Of a stretch of DNA of 64,000 bases, positions 10,805-54,661 are shown in pieces. Each line of letters starts with the position of its first letter. Position 1 is the first letter of the stretch. Both the position numbers and the translations under genes were made by a program. Under the pieces are notes generated by a model that was not told the origin of the DNA, made no database searches, and saw nothing but the letters and a program-made list of their open reading frames with translations. Location: contig CM000152.2 of assembly GCA_000004695.1 (NCBI GenBank), positions 5,600,001 through 5,664,000 on the forward strand, read 5' to 3'. Origin of the DNA: Dictyostelium discoideum. Taxonomy: Eukaryota.

Positions 10805-11967
10805 TTAATTTGTTGATGATAATGAAGCGGCATGTTTATCTTCCCAATATTGAATTCTTTTTGAACTAATTCTATGTTTTATTACATATTTAATAAAGAT
10901 ATCTTCATCAATTTCAAATGTTTCAAATGATCTTAAAATATTATAACATTTTTCAAAACTATCTTTATTTGCTAAAATTGATTCTTTAAAAAAAAAAAAA
11001 AAAAAAAAAAGGTCAGGATTTTGTTGTGTGTGTTTAGAATATGATATTATTTTTAATTTTTAACTTACTTTCATTTAATCTAAATAAAGCCATTGCAATT
11101 GAATAAACTATTGTATAACCTTCAGAGAAGATTAAATCCCAAACACGCAAGGAGATATGAAATGGGAAAGAATCTAAGAAACCAATTAGGAACCATTTTG
11201 TTGAATAAAGGGTGGTTGTTAAGTTAATATTATCTAAAGCATTTTTAGCAGCGGGGAAATAATGATTTAAAAGATTTTCAAAAACGAATGACATTCTTAT
11301 TAGACCTGGTAAACCTGATAAAAACATTGATCTCATTGAATATTCTGGTCTAGACATTAAAGATTGTAAAGTCCAAAAAGCATCTTCCTCTGATAGATAC
11401 ATCACTAATAAAGAAGCGATCGAACTCATACCTTGAGTATAGCCAACACCTTGGTCGTATAGTGAATAAACTTTCAAGACATTGAATAATGATACTTGAC
11501 CCATACCATAACGTTCTCTAAAAAATATATGATTTCTATAAGCTCTATTAACATCCAAATCTATATAAATCTCATTTGCAGAATGTTGATTCACCAATTG
11601 ATTGAATAAACCTGGATTCCTGGATTTCTCTTCTTGAGCATGTGATAACAATGGCCAAACCTCTGATCTCATTCTATCGGGTATACCTTTAATAGATCTA
11701 GATTTAAATTTACCTGTAAACTTGTGATTCAAATTATATCTCTTTATCATTGCATTCCATTTAATTGATCTTTCCAATTCTTTTTCAATCTCTTTTTTAT
11801 TCTTTAAAACACTTATATTTGATGTTAATCCACTATTAATAGTTGATCTTCTTGTATATTTTCTAGGTACTGGTGCAATTGGTGGTGATGGTGGTTCATT
11901 ATTAATTTCTTCATTTGTATTATTATTTGTATTATTATTTGTATTATTATTACTTGTATTATTATTT

Positions 11968-26848: not shown

Positions 26849-26905
<57 letters not shown>

Positions 26906-27326
26906 GATTAACTATATATAGCATTTTTAATTAGGAAATTACTATTAATAGCTTTTGTTGAACTGCTTTTTGTTTTTTTTATTATGTCACAGTTATATTA
27001 AATATTGTTATAAAAAAAAAAAAAAACAAAAAAAAAGCAAAAAATTGGTGTTAGCGATTATTGCTTGTGTTGAAAATATTGTATTCTTAAATTTAATTTT
27101 TCCCACACTTATTGGTAAATTAAAATATTATTAATATTGTTAATCATTTATATTAATTTTTAATAAATAATAAATATATATAAATATAAAAATATTATTA
27201 TTAATATTTAATTTAATTTTTTTTTAGAGAAAAAAAAAAAGTATAAATTGAAATTGAAAATATATTATTCATCATTTAAAAATAAATTATTTGTTTATTA
27301 AAAAATAATACACAAAGTAAAAAAAA

Positions 27327-27680
27327 TGACAATTTTATGTAAGTTCAATAAAATATTTAAAAAAAAAAAAAAAAAAAACCTATTATTTATTTTTCTAAAC
27401 ATTTTTTTTTTTTTTAATTTCTAATATAGCTGCAATTACTTCAATTTCAAGACCAAATAAAATTAGTAAATCAGTTATTTCATCAAATGGAGGTTCTTCA
27501 TTGTCAATGGGTTCTAATTCAGTCTCATGTTATAATGCTTGTGGAGGTGGTTCAAGTTATTCATATAGCTCAAGCTATTCAGGTTCAGGTTTAGATTATT
27601 CATATAAGGCAAACTATTCAAGTTCAACTGGTTATAATTCCTCTGTTGTAATTGCAAGTTCAACATGTCATTGCAGTTAA
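27327..27680 (+). CDS. hssA/2C/7E-like small Ser/Gly/Cys-rich protein, copy 1 (about 89 aa)
   Basis: ATG ACA ATT TTA T followed by GTAAGT (intron directly after codon 4), acceptor TATAG at about 27429. Exon 2 encodes [83 protein letters not shown]. Assignment to the Dictyostelium hssA/2C/7E (MTIL...) family is from memory of that family. Confidence 0.6.
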
Positions 27681-28149
27681 TTAATTTAATTAACTCTAAT
27701 TAATTAATTTATTAATTAATTCAACCTTGGAAATTATTTCTTTGGTCATTTAAAAAATGTATTTTAATAAAAAAAAAAAAAAAATTGAAAAAAAATTATA
27801 AATTTTAAATTGTTTTAAAATTATATTTACCTTAATAATATTATACAAATAAAATTAATTATTATTATAGTGACAATAATAAAAAAAAAATTTTAATAGT
27901 AATTAAATGATTTTTTTAAGTTATAAAATATTTTTTATTTTTAATATTGAATTTCATTTTTTTATTTTTTTTTTTGGATTTGAATATATATTATATTGAT
28001 GTTATTGAAAGTTTTTTTTATTTTTTATTTTTATTTTTTGAATCTACTATATAAATAGCTTTTTTAATTAGGAAATTACTATAAATAGCCTTTGATGGTG
28101 AACTGCTACTGTTTTTTTATTATGTCACAGTTAAAATTAATTGTTTGAA

Positions 28150-28260
28150 AAAAAAAAAAAACAAAAAATTGGTGGGAGCTATTATTGCTTGTGTTGAAAA
28201 TATTGTATTCTTAAATTTAAATTTTCCCACACATATTGGTAAATTAAAATAGTATTAAAA
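28150..28260 (+). promoter_or_regulatory. Conserved promoter module of the array (representative copy). It contains TATAAATAG boxes and a near-invariant roughly 60-bp GC-containing dyad element about 230-300 bp upstream of each ATG.
   Basis: The core TTGGTGGGAGC(G/T)ATTATTGCTTGTGTTGAAAATATTGTATTCTTAAATTTAA(T/A)TTTTCCCACAC recurs at about 27040..27110, 28170..28240, 29320..29390, 30430..30495 and 31400..31465. It shows only 1-3 substitutions among copies while the flanking A/T sequence drifts. GTGGGAG...CCCAC forms an inverted-repeat dyad. Confidence 0.4.
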
Positions 28261-28479
28261 TTGTTAATCATTTATATTTAATAAACAATAAATATATTTT
28301 TTAGTATTGTTTAAAATTATTTATTTATTTATTTATTCATTTATTTTTTTAAATTTTTTTATTTTTTTATTTTTTTTTGGTAAAAAAAAAATTATAAATA
28401 CAAATTAAAAATATATCATTCATCATTTTTAAAATAAAATATTTGTTTAATAAAAAATTAAACATAAAAATATAAAAAA

Positions 28480-28840
28480 ATGACAATTTTATGTAAGTTC
28501 AATAAAAAATTAAAATAAAAAAAAAAAACTAATTATTTATTTTCCTAAAATTTTTTTTTTTTTAATTTTTAAACATTTTTTTAATATAGCTGCAATTACT
28601 TCAATTTCAAGACCAAATAAAAGTAGTAAATCAGTTGTTTCATCAAATGGAGGTTCTTCATTATCAATGGGTTCTAATTCAGTATCATGTTTTAATGCTT
28701 GTGGAGGTGGCTCAAGTTATTCATATAGCTCAAGTTACTCAGGTTCAGGTTTAGATTATTCATATAAGGCAAACTACTCAAGTTCAAATGGTTATAATTC
28801 CTCTGTTGTAATTGCAAGTTCAACATGCCATTGCAGTTAA
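28480..28840 (+). CDS. hssA/2C/7E-like small protein, copy 2
   Basis: Same structure as copy 1: MTIL + GTAAGT intron, exon 2 from about 28600. Protein differs at a few positions (...[12 protein letters not shown]...CFNACGGG...SSNGYNSS...). Coordinates +/-2. Confidence 0.55.
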
Positions 28841-29261
28841 TTAGTTTAATTAACTATAATTAATTAATTTATTAATTGTTTCAACCTTGGAAATTATATC
28901 TTTGGTCATTAAAAAAATGTATATATGTAAAAAAAAAAATTATAATAAAAATTATCAATTTGAAATCGTTTAAAAAAACAATATAATTTACTTAATAATA
29001 TTAAACAAATTAAATTTATAATTTGATTACCATCTTCTAATGGCATGGTAAGATTGGAAAAGATATATTTTTTTTTTCTTTTTTTTTTCTGTTTGTGTTT
29101 TAAAATTTTTTTTTGAATTTGATTTGATATTAATATTGATGTTTAGACAGTTATTTTTTATATTTGGAACCTACTATTATAGGATTCTTAATAAGGAAAT
29201 TACTATTAATAGCTTTTGTGGGGAAGTGCTTCTGTTTTTTTATGTCACAGTTAAAATTATA

Positions 29262-29327
<66 letters not shown>

Positions 29328-29614
29328 TTGGTGTGAGCGATTATTGCTTGTGTTGAAAATATTGTATTCTTAAATTTAATTTTTCCCACACTTATTGGTA
29401 AATTAAAATATTATTAATACCGTTAACCATTTATATTTAATAAGCATATAAATAATATTATTTAAATAATATTATTTAAATAATATTATTTGTTATTTAT
29501 TTATTTTTTTTTTTTGTTAAAAAAAAAAAGTATAAATTGAAATTGAAAAAATATTATTAATTATTAGAAAATAAATATTTTGTTTATTATAAAAAAATAT
29601 TTTAAATTAAAAAA

Positions 29615-29961
29615 TGACAATTTTATGTAAGTTCAATAAAATATTTAAAAAATAATAAACAAAAAACTAATTTTTTTTTTTGTCTAAACTTTTTTTAATT
29701 TCCAATCTAGCTGCAATTACTTCAATTTCAAGACCAAATAAAATTAGTAAATCAGTTATTTCATCAAATGGAGGTGCATCATTATCAATGGGTTCTAATT
29801 CAGTATCATGTTTTAATGCTTGTGGAGGTGGCTCAAGTTATTCATATAGCTCAAGTTACTCAGGTTCAGGTTTAGATTATTCATATAAGGCAAACTACTC
29901 AAGTTCAACTGGCTATAATTCCTCTGTTGTAATTGCAAGTTCAACATGTCATTGCAGTTAA
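29615..29961 (+). CDS. hssA/2C/7E-like small protein, copy 3
   Basis: ATG at 29615, GTAAGT intron. Exon 2 corresponds to the [41 protein letters not shown]...TCHCS part of track ORF 29680..29961. Confidence 0.6.
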
Positions 29962-30696
29962 TTAATTTAATTAACTCTAATTAATTAATTTATTAATTAA
30001 TTCAACCTTGGAAATTATTTCTTTGGTCATTAAAAAATGTATATATGTAAAAAAATAAATAAATAAAAATTACAAAATAAATCATTGTGTGTTGGTTTTT
30101 TTTTAAGTGTTAATCTTTTCTCTATCTCTCAACAATTGGATTACCATATTCGAATGGCTTTGTAGGATCAGAAAGTATATTTATATATTTTTATTTTGAA
30201 TTTCATTTTATTTTAATTTATATTTCTAACTTTTTTTTTTGAATTTGAAATTATGTAATTAATAGTTTTTTTTTTTATTTTATTTTTTTATTTTAAACCT
30301 ACTATAAATGCATTTTATATATGGAAATTACTATAAATAGCTTTTGTGGTGAAGTGATACTGTTTTTTATTATGTCACAGTTAAAATTATATTGTTGGAA
30401 AAAAAAAAAACAAAAAAAAAAAAAAGCAAAAAATTGGTGGGAGCGATTATTGCTTGTGTTGAAAATATTGTATTCTTAAATTTAATTTTTCCCACGTATT
30501 GGTAAATTAAAATATTATTAAAACAGTTAATCATTTTTATTTATTATATCAATATCAATTAATTTAATTTTATTTAATTATATAATTTTTTTTTTTTGGT
30601 GAAAAAAAAAAGTATAAATTGAAATTAAAAATAAATTATTCATCATTGAAAAAATATATTATTTGTTAAATAAAAAATTAAATTTTAAATAAAAAA

Positions 30697-31035
30697 ATGA
30701 CAATTTTATGTAAGTTAAATAAAATAATTAAAAAAATAAAAAAAAAACTAATTATTTATTTTTTTAAACATTTTTTTAAAATAGCTACAATCACTTCAAT
30801 TTCAAGACCAAATAAAATTAGTAAATCATTTGTTTCATCAAATGGAGGCTCTTCAATATCAATGGGTTCTAATTCAGTAGCATGTTATAATGCTTGTGGA
30901 GGTGGCTCAAGTTATTCATATAGCTCAAGTTACTCAGGTTCAGGTTTAGATTATTCATATAAGGCAAACTACTCAAGTTCAACTGGTAATAATTCCTATG
31001 TTGTAATTGCAAGTTCAACATGCAATTGTAATTAA
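30697..31035 (+). CDS. hssA/2C/7E-like small protein, copy 4 (most divergent: [19 protein letters not shown]...GNNSYVV...TCNCN)
   Basis: The track ORF starts at the same ATG (MTIL). The GTAAGT donor sits directly after ATGACAATTTTAT as in the other copies. The long ORF in the track is intron read-through. Confidence 0.6.
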
Positions 31036-31244
31036 TTAATTTAAAAATAATTAATTGATTCAACCTTGGAAATTATTTCTCTGGTCATTAAAAAAATGTA
31101 TATATGTAAAAAAATAAATAAAAATTTCAAAATTAAGTAATGATTGTAGGTTTTTATTTTAAGTGTTAATCTTTTCTATTTTTCTTGATTTTTTAATACT
31201 CCGATAACCATCTTCAAATGGCCTGAAAAGATCAGAAAGTATAT

Positions 31245-31283
<39 letters not shown>

Positions 31284-31689
31284 TATAAATAGCTTTTTTA
31301 ATTAGGAAATTACTATTAATAGCTTTTGGGGTCAACTGCCACTGTTTTTTTATTATATCTCAGTTAAAATTAAAATGTTGAAAAAAAAAAAAAAAAAAAT
31401 TGGTGGGAGCGATTATTGCTTGTGTTGAAAATATTGTATTCTTAAATTTATATTTTCCCACACTTATTGGTATATTAAAATATAATTAAAACAGTTGATC
31501 ATTTGTATTTAATAATTAATAAACATAATATTAACATCACCATCAATTTATTTAATTTTATTTTATTTAATTATTTAAATTTTTTTTTTGGTAAAAAAAA
31601 AAAGTATAAATTGAAATTAAAAATATATTATTCATCATTAAAAAAATATATTATTTGTTAATTAAAAAAAAAAATTTTAAAATAAAAAA

Positions 31690-32034
31690 ATGACAATTTT
31701 ATGTAAGTCCAATAAAATAATAAAAAAAAAAAAAACTAATTATTTATTTTTCTTAACATTTTTTTTTTTAATATCTAATATAGCTGCAATTACTTCAATT
31801 TCAAGACCAAATAAAAGTAGTAAATCAGTTATTTCATCAAATGGAGGTTCTTCATTATCAATGGGTTCTAATTCAGTATCATGTTTTAATGCTTGTGGAG
31901 GTGGCTCAAGTTATTCATATAGCTCAAGTTACTCAGGTTCAGGTTTAGATTATTCATATAAGGCAAACTACTCAAGTTCAACTGGTTATAATTCCTCTGT
32001 TATAATTGCAAGTTCAACATGCCATTGCAGTTAA
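31690..32034 (+). CDS. hssA/2C/7E-like small protein, copy 5
   Basis: The track ORF starts at the MTIL ATG. Intron donor GTAAGT is at about 31703. Exon 2 gives [41 protein letters not shown]...[10 protein letters not shown]. Confidence 0.6.
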
Positions 32035-32342
32035 TTAATTTAATTAACTCTAATTAATTAATTTATTAATTAATTCAACCTTGGAATTAATTTCCTTTGG
32101 TCATTAAAAAAATGTATATATGTAAAAATATAAATAAAAATTAACATTGTGAAATTTTTTAAAAAATAAATCTATTTTAATAATAAATTAATAAAATGAA
32201 TAATTATTGTGAGGAAAAAAAAAAAAAAAAAAGAATAATAATTAAATGATATTACATTTATAATTTATTTTATTGTTTTTATTAAATATTATTTATGGAT
32301 ATTATTAATTTTATTAATTTAAATCTATTTTAATACGATAAA

Positions 32343-32423: not shown

Positions 32424-32497
32424 TTATTGAGAGTTTGCTTTTTTACAAGGTCTTGAATCAGTGAGTAATAGACTGTCATCATCATTACCATTATTGA

Positions 32498-32555
<58 letters not shown>

Positions 32556-33719
32556 GTTGTTGTTCTGTTCTTGTTCCTTTATTAAATCAATATTAACAGT
32601 TGTATTATATTTTTCGATTAAAGTTAAAATTGAATTTGAAAGTTCTAAAAAGTTTACAGGTTTTGAACAATGTAAATCGAAACCACTTTTTAAAACCTTT
32701 TCTTTATCAGATGAGGAAACGGAAGCAGTTAAAGCAATGATTGGAGTTTTTTTATTTTGAGTGTTAATCTTTTCTCTATCTCTTAATTTTCTAACCATTG
32801 AATAACCATCTTCAAATGGCATGGTAAGATCGGAAAGGATAATATCTGGTTGAGGTTTACTTGAATCACAGAGAAAAGCATAAGCATCAGAGACGCGTTG
32901 AAAAGTATCAATTCTTTTTGCACCCAATTTATAAAGCATCGACGAGAATAGATGTGTTGTCTCCTCTAAATCATCTACTAGCATTATTTGAATTCCACCT
33001 AATAAATTCTTATTACTATTTGCTTTTGGTGATCTCAAATTAGGACTCATACTATTATTATTATTATTATTACTATTATTATTATTATTATTATTGTTGT
33101 TTGACGATGATTTTAATTCAGATAAAGGAGATGAGAATGGTGATAAAGTTGGTAAAATAAATGATGGTGATGGCGATGGTAATGGTAATGAATTAATCAT
33201 GTTAATTGCTGAACTTGGAGGTGTTGGTATTGTAGTATTATTACTGTTATCATCGTTGTTACTATTATTAATGTTATTATTTATTGCATTTGTAATAATA
33301 GTTTTTAAAAGAGAGTTATTATTATTATTGTTGTTATTATTATTATTTATAACCAAAGATAATTTTGGATTTAAATTTGTTGATGGGATTTGTGATATTT
33401 CTAAATTAATTTTTTTGATATCACCAATGTTATTATTGTTATTATTACTATTATTATTATTATTGATTGGATTCAATGCTGGTGAAGGTATCAAATTTGA
33501 AGAGTTCACTAAAAAGTTTTCAGAAATTGATGAGGTTGGAGGTGGTGGTGGTGTTCTTAATCTTAAATCTACATTATTATTCTCATTATTGTTTATTTCT
33601 TCTCTTTGTCTTTTACCTAATTTTTCATTATTATTTGAATTATTATTATTATTATTATTATGATGATAATTATTATTATTATTATTATGATTATTATTAA
33701 TTAAATTATTAATATTTAA

Positions 33720-33805
<86 letters not shown>

Positions 33806-33845
33806 TATTATTATTATTACTATTATTATTATTATAATTATTATA

Positions 33846-33935
<90 letters not shown>

Positions 33936-36900
33936 ATAATTTGTTGGTTGACTAAAGAAAGGTTTTTTAATTAAAGGTGGTGAAGATGAACAAGATAATT
34001 GATTTGAAGGAGAAGAATTTGAAGAGGAAGAACCTTTAATGATAGGTAATACGACAGTGAATTGTGAACCTTTATTTTCACCTTCACTATTTGCATAGAC
34101 GGCACCTTTATGAAGGTGAATAATATTTTGAGTGATTGAAAGACCAATACCCAAACCACCATAGGATCTAGTTGAACTACAATCAGCTTGTTTAAAACGA
34201 TCGAAAACACTTGGAAGGAACTGTTTTGGTATGCCTTTACCATTGTCAGTGATAGTGAAAAGGATCCAACGATCACCATGACGATTGATTGTGTTAAACA
34301 TTGGATTGGAACAAAAACCCAATACTTCACGTGAAGGTATTTGATTTACAACCTTTAGATTTAAATGGATTCTACCTTTTTCTTTAGTGAATTTAATAGA
34401 GTTTGAAAGTAGATTCCAAATGACTTGTTGCAATCTTGCTTTATCACCAACGATGTTACGTAGAATTGAGGATTCTTCTTCACCTTCACCTTGAATATTG
34501 GAATGGACAGAGATCTTTTTAGATTGAGCTGTAACGAGTATTGAGGAGATTGCATTCTCAATTAAAATTGGTAAATCAACATCACCTAAAATTAAACTAA
34601 ACTTATCACCAATAATTAATGACATATCCAAAAGATCATTGATAAGTTGATTTTGAGAGCTTGCACAACGTTCAATAGTTTCTAAACCAGTTCTAACTGT
34701 TGAATCATCACCTGAAATTGAACCACTGCCACCACCACTACTACCACCACTATCAATATCATATAACAATAATTGACACCAACCTAAAATTCCATTTAAT
34801 GGAGTACGAAGTTCATGAGATAAATTCATAAAGAATTCATCTTTTGATTTATTTGTATTATTTAGTAGATTTCTTTCTTTTTCCAATTCACCAACCAAAG
34901 TTTGTAAATCTCTTTTCTTATTTGTTAATTGATTAATTAATTCTTGAAGATCTGTATTTGCAGAACTTAATTCTTCTTGTAGGAATTGTTTTGCTTTTTT
35001 CATAGTCATTAAATTAACTACACGTGCCACCAATTCTTCAGAGGAGAATGGTTTATTGACATAATCAGAGACACCATTTTGTAATAGTTTAATTCTTAAA
35101 TTTTCATCAGCTTTTGCAGTTAATAAAAGTATAGGAATATTATCAAATTGTTCATCGGATCTTAATTGTTCAACCATTTCATCACCACTCATACGTGGCA
35201 TCATACAATCGGTTACAATGAGATCGGGTGTTATTGCTCTTGTCTTTTCAATGCCCTCAACACCATCGAATGCTGTGACCACGAAATAATATTTACTTAA
35301 TAACTCTGCAATGAATCTATTCATCTCTGGATTATCTTCAACCACTAAAACTATTGGTTTATTATGTATATTTTCTTGTGATTGATAAAATTGTTTCTCT
35401 GTTAATTCCTCAACAGCTTGTTGAGCAATTGCATGAACTCCCATTATACTACCCATATTATCTTTTAATGCATTTGAAGCAATATCTGAAGATGTATTTG
35501 TTTTTTTTAAAATATTAAAATTTAAACCATCCTCATCATCGTCGTCGTCGTCGTCGTCATTATCGTCGTCGTTTATTTTATATTTATTATCGATATTATT
35601 TAAAATTAATTTTGGTTGTTGTAAATTTTGTTGTTGTTGTTGTTGTTGTTGTTGTTCTTGTTGTTGTTGTTGATATAATTGTTGTTGAATTTCAGAAATA
35701 TTTTGATCGGATATAGTTTTTTTATAAAGATGCTCATCCATATTTGGAGTGAGTGGTAGTCTGAGGGTGAATTGAGCACCACCAGTTGAAATGTTATGAA
35801 TGGTGACAGTGCCACCATGTAAAGTTACAAACTCCTTTACAATTGAAAGACCTAAACCAGTGCCACCATGCTTTCTAGTTGAAGAACCATCCACTTGTCT
35901 AAACCTTTCAAAGATGATCTCGTGTAAATTATCTGGTATACCAGGACCAGTATCAGACACCACGATTTGAAAGCCAGGTTTATTTGGTGACAAATCAAAT
36001 TTCTCTAAAATACACTTTACTGCACCACCTGATGGTGTGAATTTAAATGCATTGGAAATCAAATTTGTTATAACTCTTTGCATTTTATCTGCATCAATTG
36101 CTGCCATCATTGGTTCAGATGGTGTAATGATTGAGAAATCCAATGATTTCTCTCTTGCTAAAATCTCAAAACAACTTGCAATCAAATGAACGGTTTGACC
36201 TAAATTAACCATACTATAATTTAAATTCATTTTACCTGCTTCCAATCTACTTATATCTAATAAATTATTTACAATCTTTAATAATCCTCTTGCATTTCTT
36301 GCAACAATCTCTAAATCTTTTCTAACATTTATATCTACATTTTCATCTTTTAATAATTTATCTGTTGGTCCAACAATTAATGCTAATGGTGTTCTTAATT
36401 CATGTGAAACATTTGCACTAAAAAAAAAAAAAAAATTAGGTTATTATTATTTTTTTTTTTTTTTTTTTATTTTTTTATTTTTAAAAAATTACTTACAAAA
36501 ATTGAGTTTTTAATTCATCCAATTCTTTAATTTTTTCATATAAACTTCTTAATTCATTATTTTTTCTTTCGATTTCTAATTCACCTAATCTTTTTTCAGT
36601 GATATTTCTACCCTCGGGTAAGATGAGTGATACCTCACCTTTATCGTTAAATAATGGCATCAATGAGAAATCAATTGTAATCTTTTCGGTACCAGCTGAT
36701 TTACCAAAGATTTCAGTTTCATAACGTATAAATTCACCTTTTGATGCTTTATGAACTGCCTCTCTAACATTATCTATATTCTCTTGTGATGTTGCCCACC
36801 ATCTACAATCCCAAAATGGTATACCTTGAATACTTGAACGTATCATACCACCACCTTGTAATGCTGGTTCATTTACATCTAATAAATTACCATTAACATC

Positions 36901-39989: not shown

Positions 39990-41144
<1,155 letters not shown>

Positions 41145-52918: not shown

Positions 52919-52991
52919 GCCCGGCTAGCTCAGTCGGTAGAGCGCCAGACTCTTAATCTGGTGGTCGGGGGTTCGAGCCCCCCGTTGGGCG
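52919..52991 (+). tRNA. tRNA-Lys (anticodon CTT)
   Basis: 73-nt cloverleaf GCCCGGCTAGCTCAGTCGGTAGAGCGCCAGACTCTTAATCTGGTGGTCGGGGGTTCGAGCCCCCCGTTGGGCG. It has A and B boxes, anticodon loop CUCUUAA and the same acceptor stem as metazoan tRNA-Lys(CUU). It is followed by T-rich Pol III terminator AATTTTTTATTTT. Confidence 0.9.
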
Positions 52992-54002: not shown

Positions 54003-54075
54003 TCACCCATTGTGGGTCTCGATCCCACGACCTGCAGCTTAGAAGGCTGCCGCAATTCCAACTTTGCTAAACGGG
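54003..54075 (-). tRNA. tRNA-Arg (anticodon TCT), probable
   Basis: The reverse complement gives GCCCGTTTAGCAAAGTTGGAATTGCGGCAGCCTTCTAAGCTGCAGGTCGTGGGATCGAGACCCACAATGGGTG. It has D-arm, anticodon stem GCAGC/GCTGC with loop CUUCUAA, T-arm GTGGG-ATCGAGA-CCCAC and a 7-bp acceptor with two G-U pairs. A poly-T follows within 10 nt. It is head-to-head with tRNA-Lys about 1 kb away. Confidence 0.6.
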
Positions 54076-54661
54076 CTTTGTTGAATTTAAAAAAAATTAT
54101 AGCCAAAATCGGCATTAATTTTAAAGTTTGTACCTTGTTTTATTTCTGATGAAAAACATCGGGTATTGTTATTATTTAAATATTTTGTAATTTTCAGCCT
54201 CTATACCATTATTATTTTAATTTTTTTTTTTTTTTTTTTTTTTTTTTGAATTTAATATTTTAAATTTAATAATAATATTTTTTATTATTGTTGAAAAATA
54301 TATGTGGTCAATATTTCAAATAAATATAATAATTTACAATAGATTTATTTAGATATATAATGTAAATTAATAAATGGTTATTAATATTATTATAATTATT
54401 TTTTTTAAATTTTTTTAAATTCTACACAACCTAATATTTAAACCTAATATTTTTTTTTTTCATTTTATTATTGCTTTTTCACACCCAATATTTAAACCAC
54501 AAAGATATCAAAAAAATATCTTAGGAATAAAAAAAAAAAAAAATTTAAAAAATTTTTTTCATTGATTTTTATTTTAGTTTTTTTTTTTTATTTTTTTTAT
54601 TTTTTATAATTATAAAAACACAACAATTTAAAAAAAAAAAATATTTTTTTATCTCTTAAAA

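Follow-up and report, generated by a model that had tools for sequence, protein, structure and literature searches.

What keeps a short stretch of upstream DNA almost unchanged in each of five neighbouring genes when the A/T-rich sequence around it drifts? The question is raised by a 64,000-nucleotide stretch of the Dictyostelium discoideum AX4 genome (assembly GCA_000004695.1, contig CM000152.2, forward-strand positions 5,600,001 to 5,664,000; the whole stretch is called the window, and positions are counted from its first letter). Between 26.9 and 32.1 kb it carries five head-to-tail plus-strand units with a period of 993-1160 bp, flanked by a DnaJ gene (minus strand, end ~26350) on one side and a hybrid histidine-kinase gene (minus strand, 32424-36245) on the other. 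Each unit holds a small gene of the hssA/2C/7E family, the five genes being hssl54-58, together with a conserved upstream element that we call block D. An earlier note, made from the letters of this DNA, had picked out the element and put forward its inverted repeat, GTGGGA and TCCCAC, as the candidate core of a transcription-factor site. Here we report that block D is under selective constraint, and we put at about 60% the probability that it serves the hssl54-58 subfamily as a composite cis-regulatory module of the enhancer type, a proposal that we base on comparison of sequences.

A conserved block upstream of every gene in the array

Read onwards from a stop codon, each unit consists of a 3' flank of ~95 nt (A), a spacer with many homopolymer runs, block C, a poly(A) tract, block D, a further A/T-rich spacer and a TATA segment (E) ahead of the next gene. 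In block C (~95 nt), one or two ACTAT(A/T)AATAGC boxes are accompanied by a G/T stretch, a T run and GTCACAGTTA. Block D is made up of a core of ~76 nt and an extension of ~45 nt, and is located ~220-300 bp 5' of each ATG, roughly 140-215 bp 5' of the conserved TATA box. Since the poly(A) tract that separates the two blocks varies from ~19 to ~60 nt among units, the spacing between C and D appears to be free of constraint. The earlier note had described near-identical promoters with TATAAATAG boxes; these boxes lie 366-411 bp 5' of the ATG and are not the core promoter, and the likely core TATA is a separate GTATAAATTGAAATT box, conserved in the units 82-86 nt (~-83) 5' of the ATG.

A 34-nt core of the element is matched five times at no more than two mismatches, once in each unit and nowhere else in the 64 kb, where shuffled sequences lead one to expect none. 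The 64-mer that had been quoted as the conserved sequence is a consensus, so that the claim stands for the element, which recurs once per unit, but not for its letters: no unit has the exact 64-mer, the mismatches numbering one in unit 3, two each in units 1, 4 and 5, and three in unit 2 (the last read from the alignment).

To these five units we aligned seven further sequences: the five positional orthologues at the array locus (L002) of a second genome, and two copies from an unlinked locus, one in D. citrinum (L001) and one in the second genome (L003). Across the 12 sequences there are 47 invariant columns, every one of them in block D, within positions 27060-27145. What is conserved is ATTGCTTGTGTT-R-AAAA-W-ATTGTATT, CCCAC, TATTGG and GTTAATCA, the constrained parts of the element being ATTGCTTGTGTTRAAAAWATTGTATT, CCCAC and TATTGG. 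The spacing between these motifs accommodates indels of 1, 2 and 7 nt, a pattern that fits a set of separate binding sites, and the AATTTTT stretch before CCCAC is absent in D. citrinum and in unit 1 of L002.

Block D evolves slowly and keeps its positional orthology

Among the AX4 units, substitutions per aligned site amount to 4.1% in the element core and 4.5% in exon 2, 9.5% in the intron, 12% in the 3' flank, 13% in block C, 15% in the core promoter with the 5' untranslated region (5'UTR) and 18-23% in the spacers. The earlier observation that the element is far better conserved than the surrounding DNA, with the spacers more diverged, is thereby borne out. The second genome (GCA_054859385.1, labelled D. 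discoideum) is the only close outgroup for the array, and at L002 it has a DnaJ gene, five units and a kinase gene in the same order as AX4. Positional orthologues in the two genomes are separated by a synonymous divergence (dS) of 0.097 and a nonsynonymous divergence (dN) of 0.039 (dN/dS ~0.4). Spacers, intron and core promoter differ by 8-11%, and the element core differs at 16 of 369 sites (4.3%) as against 319 of 3182 (10.0%) in the other non-coding DNA (Fisher p = 1.5e-4). When the comparison is confined to well-alignable non-coding sequence, the figures are 180/1887 versus 16/369 (p = 8e-4). Relative to neutral DNA the element core evolves ~2.3-fold slower, its rate being close to that of exon 2, and block D, over ~75-120 bp, is under selective constraint.

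Could the element instead have no function of its own and appear conserved because it has been copied, by recent duplication or ongoing gene conversion, and because mixed-base sequence aligns better than A/T homopolymer DNA? Gene conversion does act in this array: in 9 of 10 cases exon 2 is closest to a paralogue of its own genome (27430-27680 to 31784-32034 in AX4; 7941-13959 in L002), AX4 units 2 and 5 being 1.2% apart and L002 units 4 and 5 being 2.4% apart, when orthologues differ by 3-8%, so the coding exon has evidently been homogenised. The paralogue distance of block D (4.1%) is also close to its orthologue distance (4.3%), and the spacers are so full of homopolymer runs that their alignment is unreliable. 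The non-coding blocks, however, behave otherwise. Their nearest relative is usually the positional counterpart (for example, block C of units 1 and 2), and in block D four AX4-L002 pairs are each other's closest sequences (units 2, 3 and 5, in both directions except for unit 4). Units 2, 4 and 5 carry position-specific element variants common to both genomes. It follows that the five units were already in place when the two genomes split, at dS ~0.10, which disposes of the very recent duplication that the earlier note had named as a possible source of the identity. The shared variants in block D likewise mean that it has not been homogenised since that split, and because it keeps its positional orthology, selection explains its conservation better. 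Further, the rate contrast stands when only well-alignable parts are used, and in two genomes the element has been kept at the unlinked paralogous locus, whose introns and spacers can no longer be aligned. Copying is for these reasons an unlikely account of block D, and the comparison of coding with non-coding divergence that had been suggested as a check detects conversion in exon 2 and none in the element.

The element marks a subfamily

Outside the array the closest relatives are a single-copy gene of the second genome (P0008, at L003) and its D. citrinum counterpart (P0007, at L001), both in a genomic neighbourhood different from that of the array. At these two loci block C again precedes a diverged copy of block D, the central motif lies 270-283 bp 5' of the ATG, and the 5' G/T box has moved or changed (TTTGGTAGG and TAGTGGGTGAG); GTATAAAT boxes like the TATA of the array are visible 5' of the genes in L001, L002 and L003. 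Both loci also have a second copy of the central motif (ATTGTTTGTGTTAA...; L001 9693-9712, L003 5661-5677), ~40-57 nt 5' of the first and just before the poly(A), where the array has only a truncated TATATTGTT.

Profile searches with nhmmer, covering the 64-kb window and the fetched loci, gave 12 sites for block D and 11 for block C, all in this subclade, and nothing further in that sequence, which included the DNA 5' of two hssA/hssB-like genes of D. firmibasis (L013). In this pair, which supplied the more distant family promoters in the comparison, there are only generic G/T boxes, AGTGGTGGGT and TTGTGTTTGTGTGG, ~310-380 bp upstream. A scan of metagenomes with ATTGCTTGTGTTN{5,6}ATTGTATT returned nine hits (GC content 26-47%), none accompanied by the flanking motifs or by an hssl-like gene, and we treat them as probable chance matches. 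To judge from the promoters compared, then, the element is specific to the subfamily and not family-wide. The expectation that it would be the shared cis-control of the hssA/2C/7E family does not hold for the two D. firmibasis genes, and a search for it near other family members succeeds at the unlinked paralogue in two genomes and fails at that same D. firmibasis pair.

Block D as a proposed composite binding platform

The anatomy of block D, its constraint and its conservation across genomes and at one paralogous locus, all described above, can be turned into a proposal about which proteins may bind it and how transcription would respond. Its parts are a G/T box, TTGGTGGG; a central motif, ATTGCTTGTGTTGAAAATATTGTATTC; a C/A box, CCCACAC (complement GTGTGGG); an inverted CCAAT-like TATTGG; and GTTAATCA. 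A third run, TTGTGTTG, lies inside the block, one end of which is G/T-only and the other C/A-only. We propose that the G/T and C/A boxes could serve as half-sites of GBF-type G-boxes and mediate post-aggregative induction, which is documented in other members of the hssA/2C/7E family, and that the invariant central motif may bind a further factor. Together with TATTGG, that motif would probably account for subfamily specificity. Block C, 50-110 bp further 5', may add an input of the SrfA or Mef2A type.

Dependence on GBF has been documented for several family members, according to PMC2257962 and to the title of the hssA paper as given through PMC6198379, and PMC2257962 states the GBF G-box formula as (T/G)G(T/G)G(T/G)G(T/G). 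Four of the five AX4 units have three G/T or C/A runs within 64 bp, an arrangement in which the boxes are multiple and lie close together; unit 4 has two, its CCCACG run being below the cut-off. The literature search yielded nothing usable by way of a fuller GBF consensus.

For block C the relevant consensus is that of MEF2-type MADS factors, CTA(A/T)4TAG (PMC3640940). It is matched in block C of all five AX4 units, with seven strict matches in the array, and the proximal box is exact in 5/5 AX4 units and in three of the four L002 units that retain block C, relaxing to ...TAA in L001 and L003. Unit 4 of L002 amounts to a natural deletion of block C, since a ~1.4-kb insertion (L002 10680-12060) takes the place of that block and leaves the gene and block D of the unit intact; the insertion contains a called open reading frame (ORF) of 106 amino acids (11455-11775) with no Pfam hit. 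Prestalk genes related to hssA are mis-expressed in mef2A-null structures (PMC3640940), and sigN1 depends in part on the MADS factor SrfA. The case for MEF2-type input through block C is suggestive but weak, and the same block, in which a T run comes after a TATA-like box, might instead act as an upstream promoter.

Several findings weigh against the proposal as a whole. The difference in rate is only ~2.3-fold, over roughly 75 bp. Within block D the strict 7-nt GBF formula is matched in one unit only (28227, CCACACA), and the runs common to all copies, TTGGTGKG, TTGTGTTG and CCCACAC, match it at 6 of 7 positions, so that GBF binding is something we infer. The best-conserved segment, ATTGCTTGTGTT..ATTGTATT, corresponds to no factor that can be named. 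MEF2-type boxes number 12 in the window where 2.2 are expected, but 7 of the 12 are copies of two ancestral sites, which inflates the count, and an A/T-rich consensus is easily matched in this genome. Finally, hssl54-58 were not found by name in the literature searched. Taking both sides together, block D is most likely an ordinary, subfamily-specific platform for transcription-factor binding, a conclusion drawn from motif content and constraint, rather than a special dyad.

The inverted repeat is not the core of the element

A functional symmetric dyad, GTGGGA(N)TCCCAC, bound by a dimeric factor was the reading first offered for this element. The two arms are intact in three of the five AX4 units (2, 4 and 5) and in most units of L002; the 5' arm reads GTGTTA in AX4 unit 1 and GTGTGA in AX4 unit 3 but seems to have been GTGGGA ancestrally, given that the L002 positional orthologues of units 1 and 3 carry it. 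GTGGGA is also over-represented in the window (19 observed against 6.8 expected, with 8 of the 19 in the array). Against the dyad, a symmetric site would be expected to keep both arms at a fixed spacing, yet over the 12 sequences the 5' arm is broken in four (AX4 units 1 and 3, L002 unit 4 and D. citrinum) and the 3' arm is unchanged, no pair has changed on both sides, and pairing between the arms is no better than in shuffled controls. The 5' arm is in fact the least conserved part, the central 30 nt of the element being more conserved than it is. Nor is spacing kept: CCCAC lies 42 nt away from the central motif in ten of the sequences but 7 nt closer, at 35 nt, in the other two. The gap between the arms measures 47 nt, not the 45 first given, and is unusually long for a dimer site. 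A 6-bp inverted repeat is, moreover, trivial by itself in a region where a scan of the surrounding 11 kb turns up 763 inverted-repeat pairs of 40 nt or more. These alignments do not support the dyad as the conserved or functional core of the element, and we think it quite improbable that a dimeric factor reads it as such.

An RNA or a coding role finds no support

Block D might also be transcribed, as a structured RNA or hairpin precursor, as a DUSE-driven noncoding RNA (ncRNA) gene, or within an upstream transcript that starts from block C. In block C, TATAAATAG is followed ~30 nt later by an oligo(dT) run, and a TATA-like box followed by such a run is the layout of Dictyostelium core promoters. 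The CCCAC(A) box resembles the DUSE with its three consecutive Cs (PMC7919456), and the complementary ends of the element resemble the 5'/3' stem of Class I RNAs. Against these resemblances, Rfam at gathering thresholds reports two unrelated tRNAs as its only matches in the whole window, and over the array nothing but a sub-threshold chance hit to mir-651 at E<=1 (22.8 bits against a gathering score of 106). Folding is ordinary, with z-scores of +0.9 to -1.3 on the plus strand and -2.1 for one copy on the minus strand (seven copies or strands), and the terminal stem has neither covariation nor pairing better than shuffled controls. Conservation fades 3' of CCCAC, and at ~60 nt there is no conserved sequence and no TGTG box. 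Read on the minus strand, block C lies at a variable distance from the CCCAC-like box, as the poly(A) tract differs in length. A DUSE or Class I RNA gene was accordingly rejected as a candidate, there being no TGTG box, no 11-nt motif at ~60 nt, no covariation and no Rfam signal, and transcription of block D in any of these forms is something we hold to be distinctly unlikely.

A more specific version, in which blocks C and D form a separate upstream transcription unit that takes its TATA-like boxes and oligo(dT) run from block C, starts near ATTATGTCACAG and whose ncRNA or upstream-ORF transcript controls the hssl gene in cis, we regard as very unlikely. If it were true, the upstream transcript would cross the poly(A) and the element, and the constraint on block D would act on RNA and not on protein-binding DNA. 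Family transcripts can act as RNA, in that a frame-shifted hssA still rescues a STATa mutant, as PMC6198379 reports.

The idea that block D is a coding or relic exon carried along by duplication, reading LVGAIIACVENIVFLNLIFPTL on the plus strand and then a donor-like GGTAAAT (with the boundary after the first G), can draw on one plus-strand frame that is open in 9 of 10 array copies, one minus-strand frame open in most and the presence in the array of pseudo-fragments of the neighbouring gene, but it was rejected on account of an in-frame stop in AX4 unit 3 and of frame-shifting deletions in five copies (7 nt in L002 unit 1 and D. citrinum, 2 nt in the two units 4, 1 nt in L003), and with no conserved start codon or splice acceptor, a block C ATG in frame with the element in unit 4 only, and no other tblastn match to the element peptide in the window, it is exceedingly improbable.

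The genes, their flanks and the rest of the window

Every unit encodes a protein of 87 amino acids, and the five proteins are exact matches to the NCBI/UniProt entries for hssA/2C/7E family (HssA/B-like) proteins 54-58. The array genes are hssl54-58 of D. discoideum AX4, and both the genes and the array had been annotated before, in keeping with the earlier description of a five-copy tandem of hssA/2C/7E-like genes; the residue variants listed there (Y/F, T/N and HCS/NCN) were each found in the translations. All five genes have an exon 1 of 13 nt (ATGACAATTTTAT), a phase 1 intron of 75-97 nt and an exon 2 of 251 nt, so that the intron comes after nucleotide 13, within codon 5, and not directly after codon 4 as had been stated. 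This is the family structure: in PMC2257962, 89 of 96 hssA/2C/7E genes are given as having a 13-nt coding part of exon 1, a single short intron and the rest in exon 2. The five proteins are also small (<120 amino acids) and rich in Ser, Gly and Cys, as family members are, and Pfam PF05710 is on record for the cluster representatives of the array proteins. A tblastn search of the window returned no further family member. The guessed identifiers DDB_G0282299-307 for the array were dropped, as they occur in no main text and the supplementary G0282305 and G0282307 are not annotated as hssA family.

In the 3' flank, a motif GGAAATTATTTC(C/T)TT.GTCATT has been kept in 12/12 genes, the unlinked paralogue included (L001 10357-10410; L003 6391-6450), where it forms a perfect palindrome, AAGGAAAT-T-ATTTCCTT; it may be a 3' untranslated region (3'UTR) or termination signal.

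Three of the four internal spacers contain decayed copies, 60-110 nt long and interrupted by stop codons, of the kinase-gene stretch that encodes ILSDLTMPFEDGYSMVRKLRDREKINTQNK of the receiver domain (source 32732-32841, minus strand), which implies that the original duplication unit ended inside the kinase gene. The ~590 bp between the 3' flank and the kinase fragment are absent from the copies, and L002 spacers have similar sequence in the matching places (…CATCTTCAAATG…GAAAG…, read from the L002 sequence). The kinase gene itself, a polyubiquitin gene and two tRNA genes are among the other features of the window (Table 1).

Table 1. Positions in the window of the array's genes and upstream blocks, of receiver-domain fragments and of neighbouring features
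Feature	Position	Strand	Remarks
Unit 1 gene, hssl54	27326..27680	+	Exon 1 27326-27338, intron 27339-27429, exon 2 27430-27680; protein identical to XP_640252/Q54SP9
Unit 2 gene (one of hssl54-58)	28480..28840	+	87 amino acids; exon 1 28480-28492, exon 2 28590-28840
Unit 3 gene	29614..29961	+	87 amino acids; exon 1 29614-29626, exon 2 29711-29961
Unit 4 gene, hssl57	30697..31035	+	Exon 1 30697-30709, exon 2 30785-31035; most divergent, CNCN terminus; P0006 = HssA/B-like protein 57
Unit 5 gene	31690..32034	+	87 amino acids; exon 1 31690-31702, exon 2 31784-32034
Block D, unit 1	27040..27160	+	Core 27040-27115, extension to 27160; 5' G/T box mutated to GTGTTA
Block D, unit 2	28164..28284	+	Core 28164-28239
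Block D, unit 3	29323..29443	+	Core 29323-29398; 5' box GTGTGA
Block D, unit 4	30429..30547	+	Core 30429-30500; 2-nt deletion after CCCAC, also in the L002 positional orthologue
Block D, unit 5	31395..31515	+	Core 31395-31470
Block C, unit 1	26905..27001	+	Two CTA(A/T)4TAG boxes (26912, 26942), G/T-rich stretch, T run, GTCACAGTTA
Block C, unit 2	28041..28139	+	Strict box 28079
Block C, unit 3	29165..29259	+	Strict box 29203
Block C, unit 4	30297..30389	+	Strict box 30331
Block C, unit 5	31276..31372	+	Strict boxes 31283, 31313
Poly(A) tract between blocks C and D, units 1-5	27002-27039, 28140-28163, 29260-29322, 30390-30428, 31373-31394		
Likely core TATA, unit 1	27241..27260	+	GTATAAATTGAAATTGAAAA, ~83 nt 5' of the ATG; equivalents at 28392, 29530, 30612, 31604
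3' flank/3'UTR block, unit 5	32035..32130	+	With GGAAATTATTTC..GTCATT; equivalents 27681-27775, 28841-28935, 29962-30055, 31036-31114
Decayed receiver-domain copy, spacer of units 2-3	29010..29065	-	Source 32783-32841
Decayed receiver-domain fragment, spacer of units 3-4	30087..30179	-	With stop codons
Decayed receiver-domain fragment, spacer of units 4-5	31135..31243	-	81% identical to 32732-32841
Hybrid histidine kinase, large ORF	32424-36245	-	Long tracts of poly-Asn and of poly-Gln; the spacer fragments derive from its receiver domain
Polyubiquitin gene	39999-41144	+	Five head-to-tail ubiquitin repeats, 381 amino acids
tRNA gene	52919-52991	+	Rfam 66.9 bits; ~1 kb from the next, on the opposite strand
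tRNA gene	54004-54076	-	Rfam 59.2 bits

Discussion and comparison with known systems

The hssA/2C/7E family has nearly 100 members that are strongly and sharply regulated in development and whose knock-outs have so far yielded no phenotype, which leaves regulation as its most tractable aspect. For this the array supplies a compact and well-delimited candidate enhancer, the evidence coming from five paralogues, five positional orthologues and two copies at the unlinked locus. Such comparisons tell constrained motifs apart from neutral A/T-rich DNA, and promoter constraint apart from conversion of the coding exon, and they reduce the element to a short list of motifs. No concept is changed by the result, which concerns an ordinary conserved promoter module in a duplicated gene cluster.

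Four known systems invite comparison. With the DUSE-driven Class I ncRNA genes of Dictyostelia (PMC7919456) block D has in common a CCC-containing motif and a ~60-nt element with complementary ends, but it is without their conserved RNA, TGTG box, 11-nt motif, stem covariation and Rfam or structural signal. The study of Mef2A (PMC3640940) is matched in that the exact consensus stands in block C of all five units; there, however, hssA-related genes were up in the mutant and the authors' search for sites covered down-regulated genes only, and here the block C boxes could equally be TATA-like, the distal one having decayed in several units. As in other tandem arrays that evolve in concert through gene conversion, exon 2 clusters by genome and the flanks keep their positional orthology, with the difference that conversion tracts in this array apparently involve the coding exon only and the element is conserved without homogenisation.

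The closest parallel is provided by the GBF-type G-boxes of the sigN genes, themselves of the hssA/2C/7E family, described by Vicente et al. 2008 (PMC2257962). The sigN genes form inverted pairs, whereas hssl54-58 are direct tandem repeats of another subclade on another chromosome, and the predicted hssl54-58 boxes mostly fit the formula at 6 of 7 positions. The best-conserved part of block D, the central A/T-rich ATTGCTTGTGTTRAAAAWATTGTATT, goes unmentioned in the Results, promoter analysis and Discussion of that paper. The two systems share the family and its gene structure, closely spaced G/T- or C/A-rich boxes a few hundred bp 5' of the gene in an A/T-rich context, promoters conserved among tandem paralogues and a family in which members depend on GBF. 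Block D is best filed as a new example of this known kind: an upstream module, conserved and with putative G-boxes, in a cluster of developmental genes that arose by tandem duplication.

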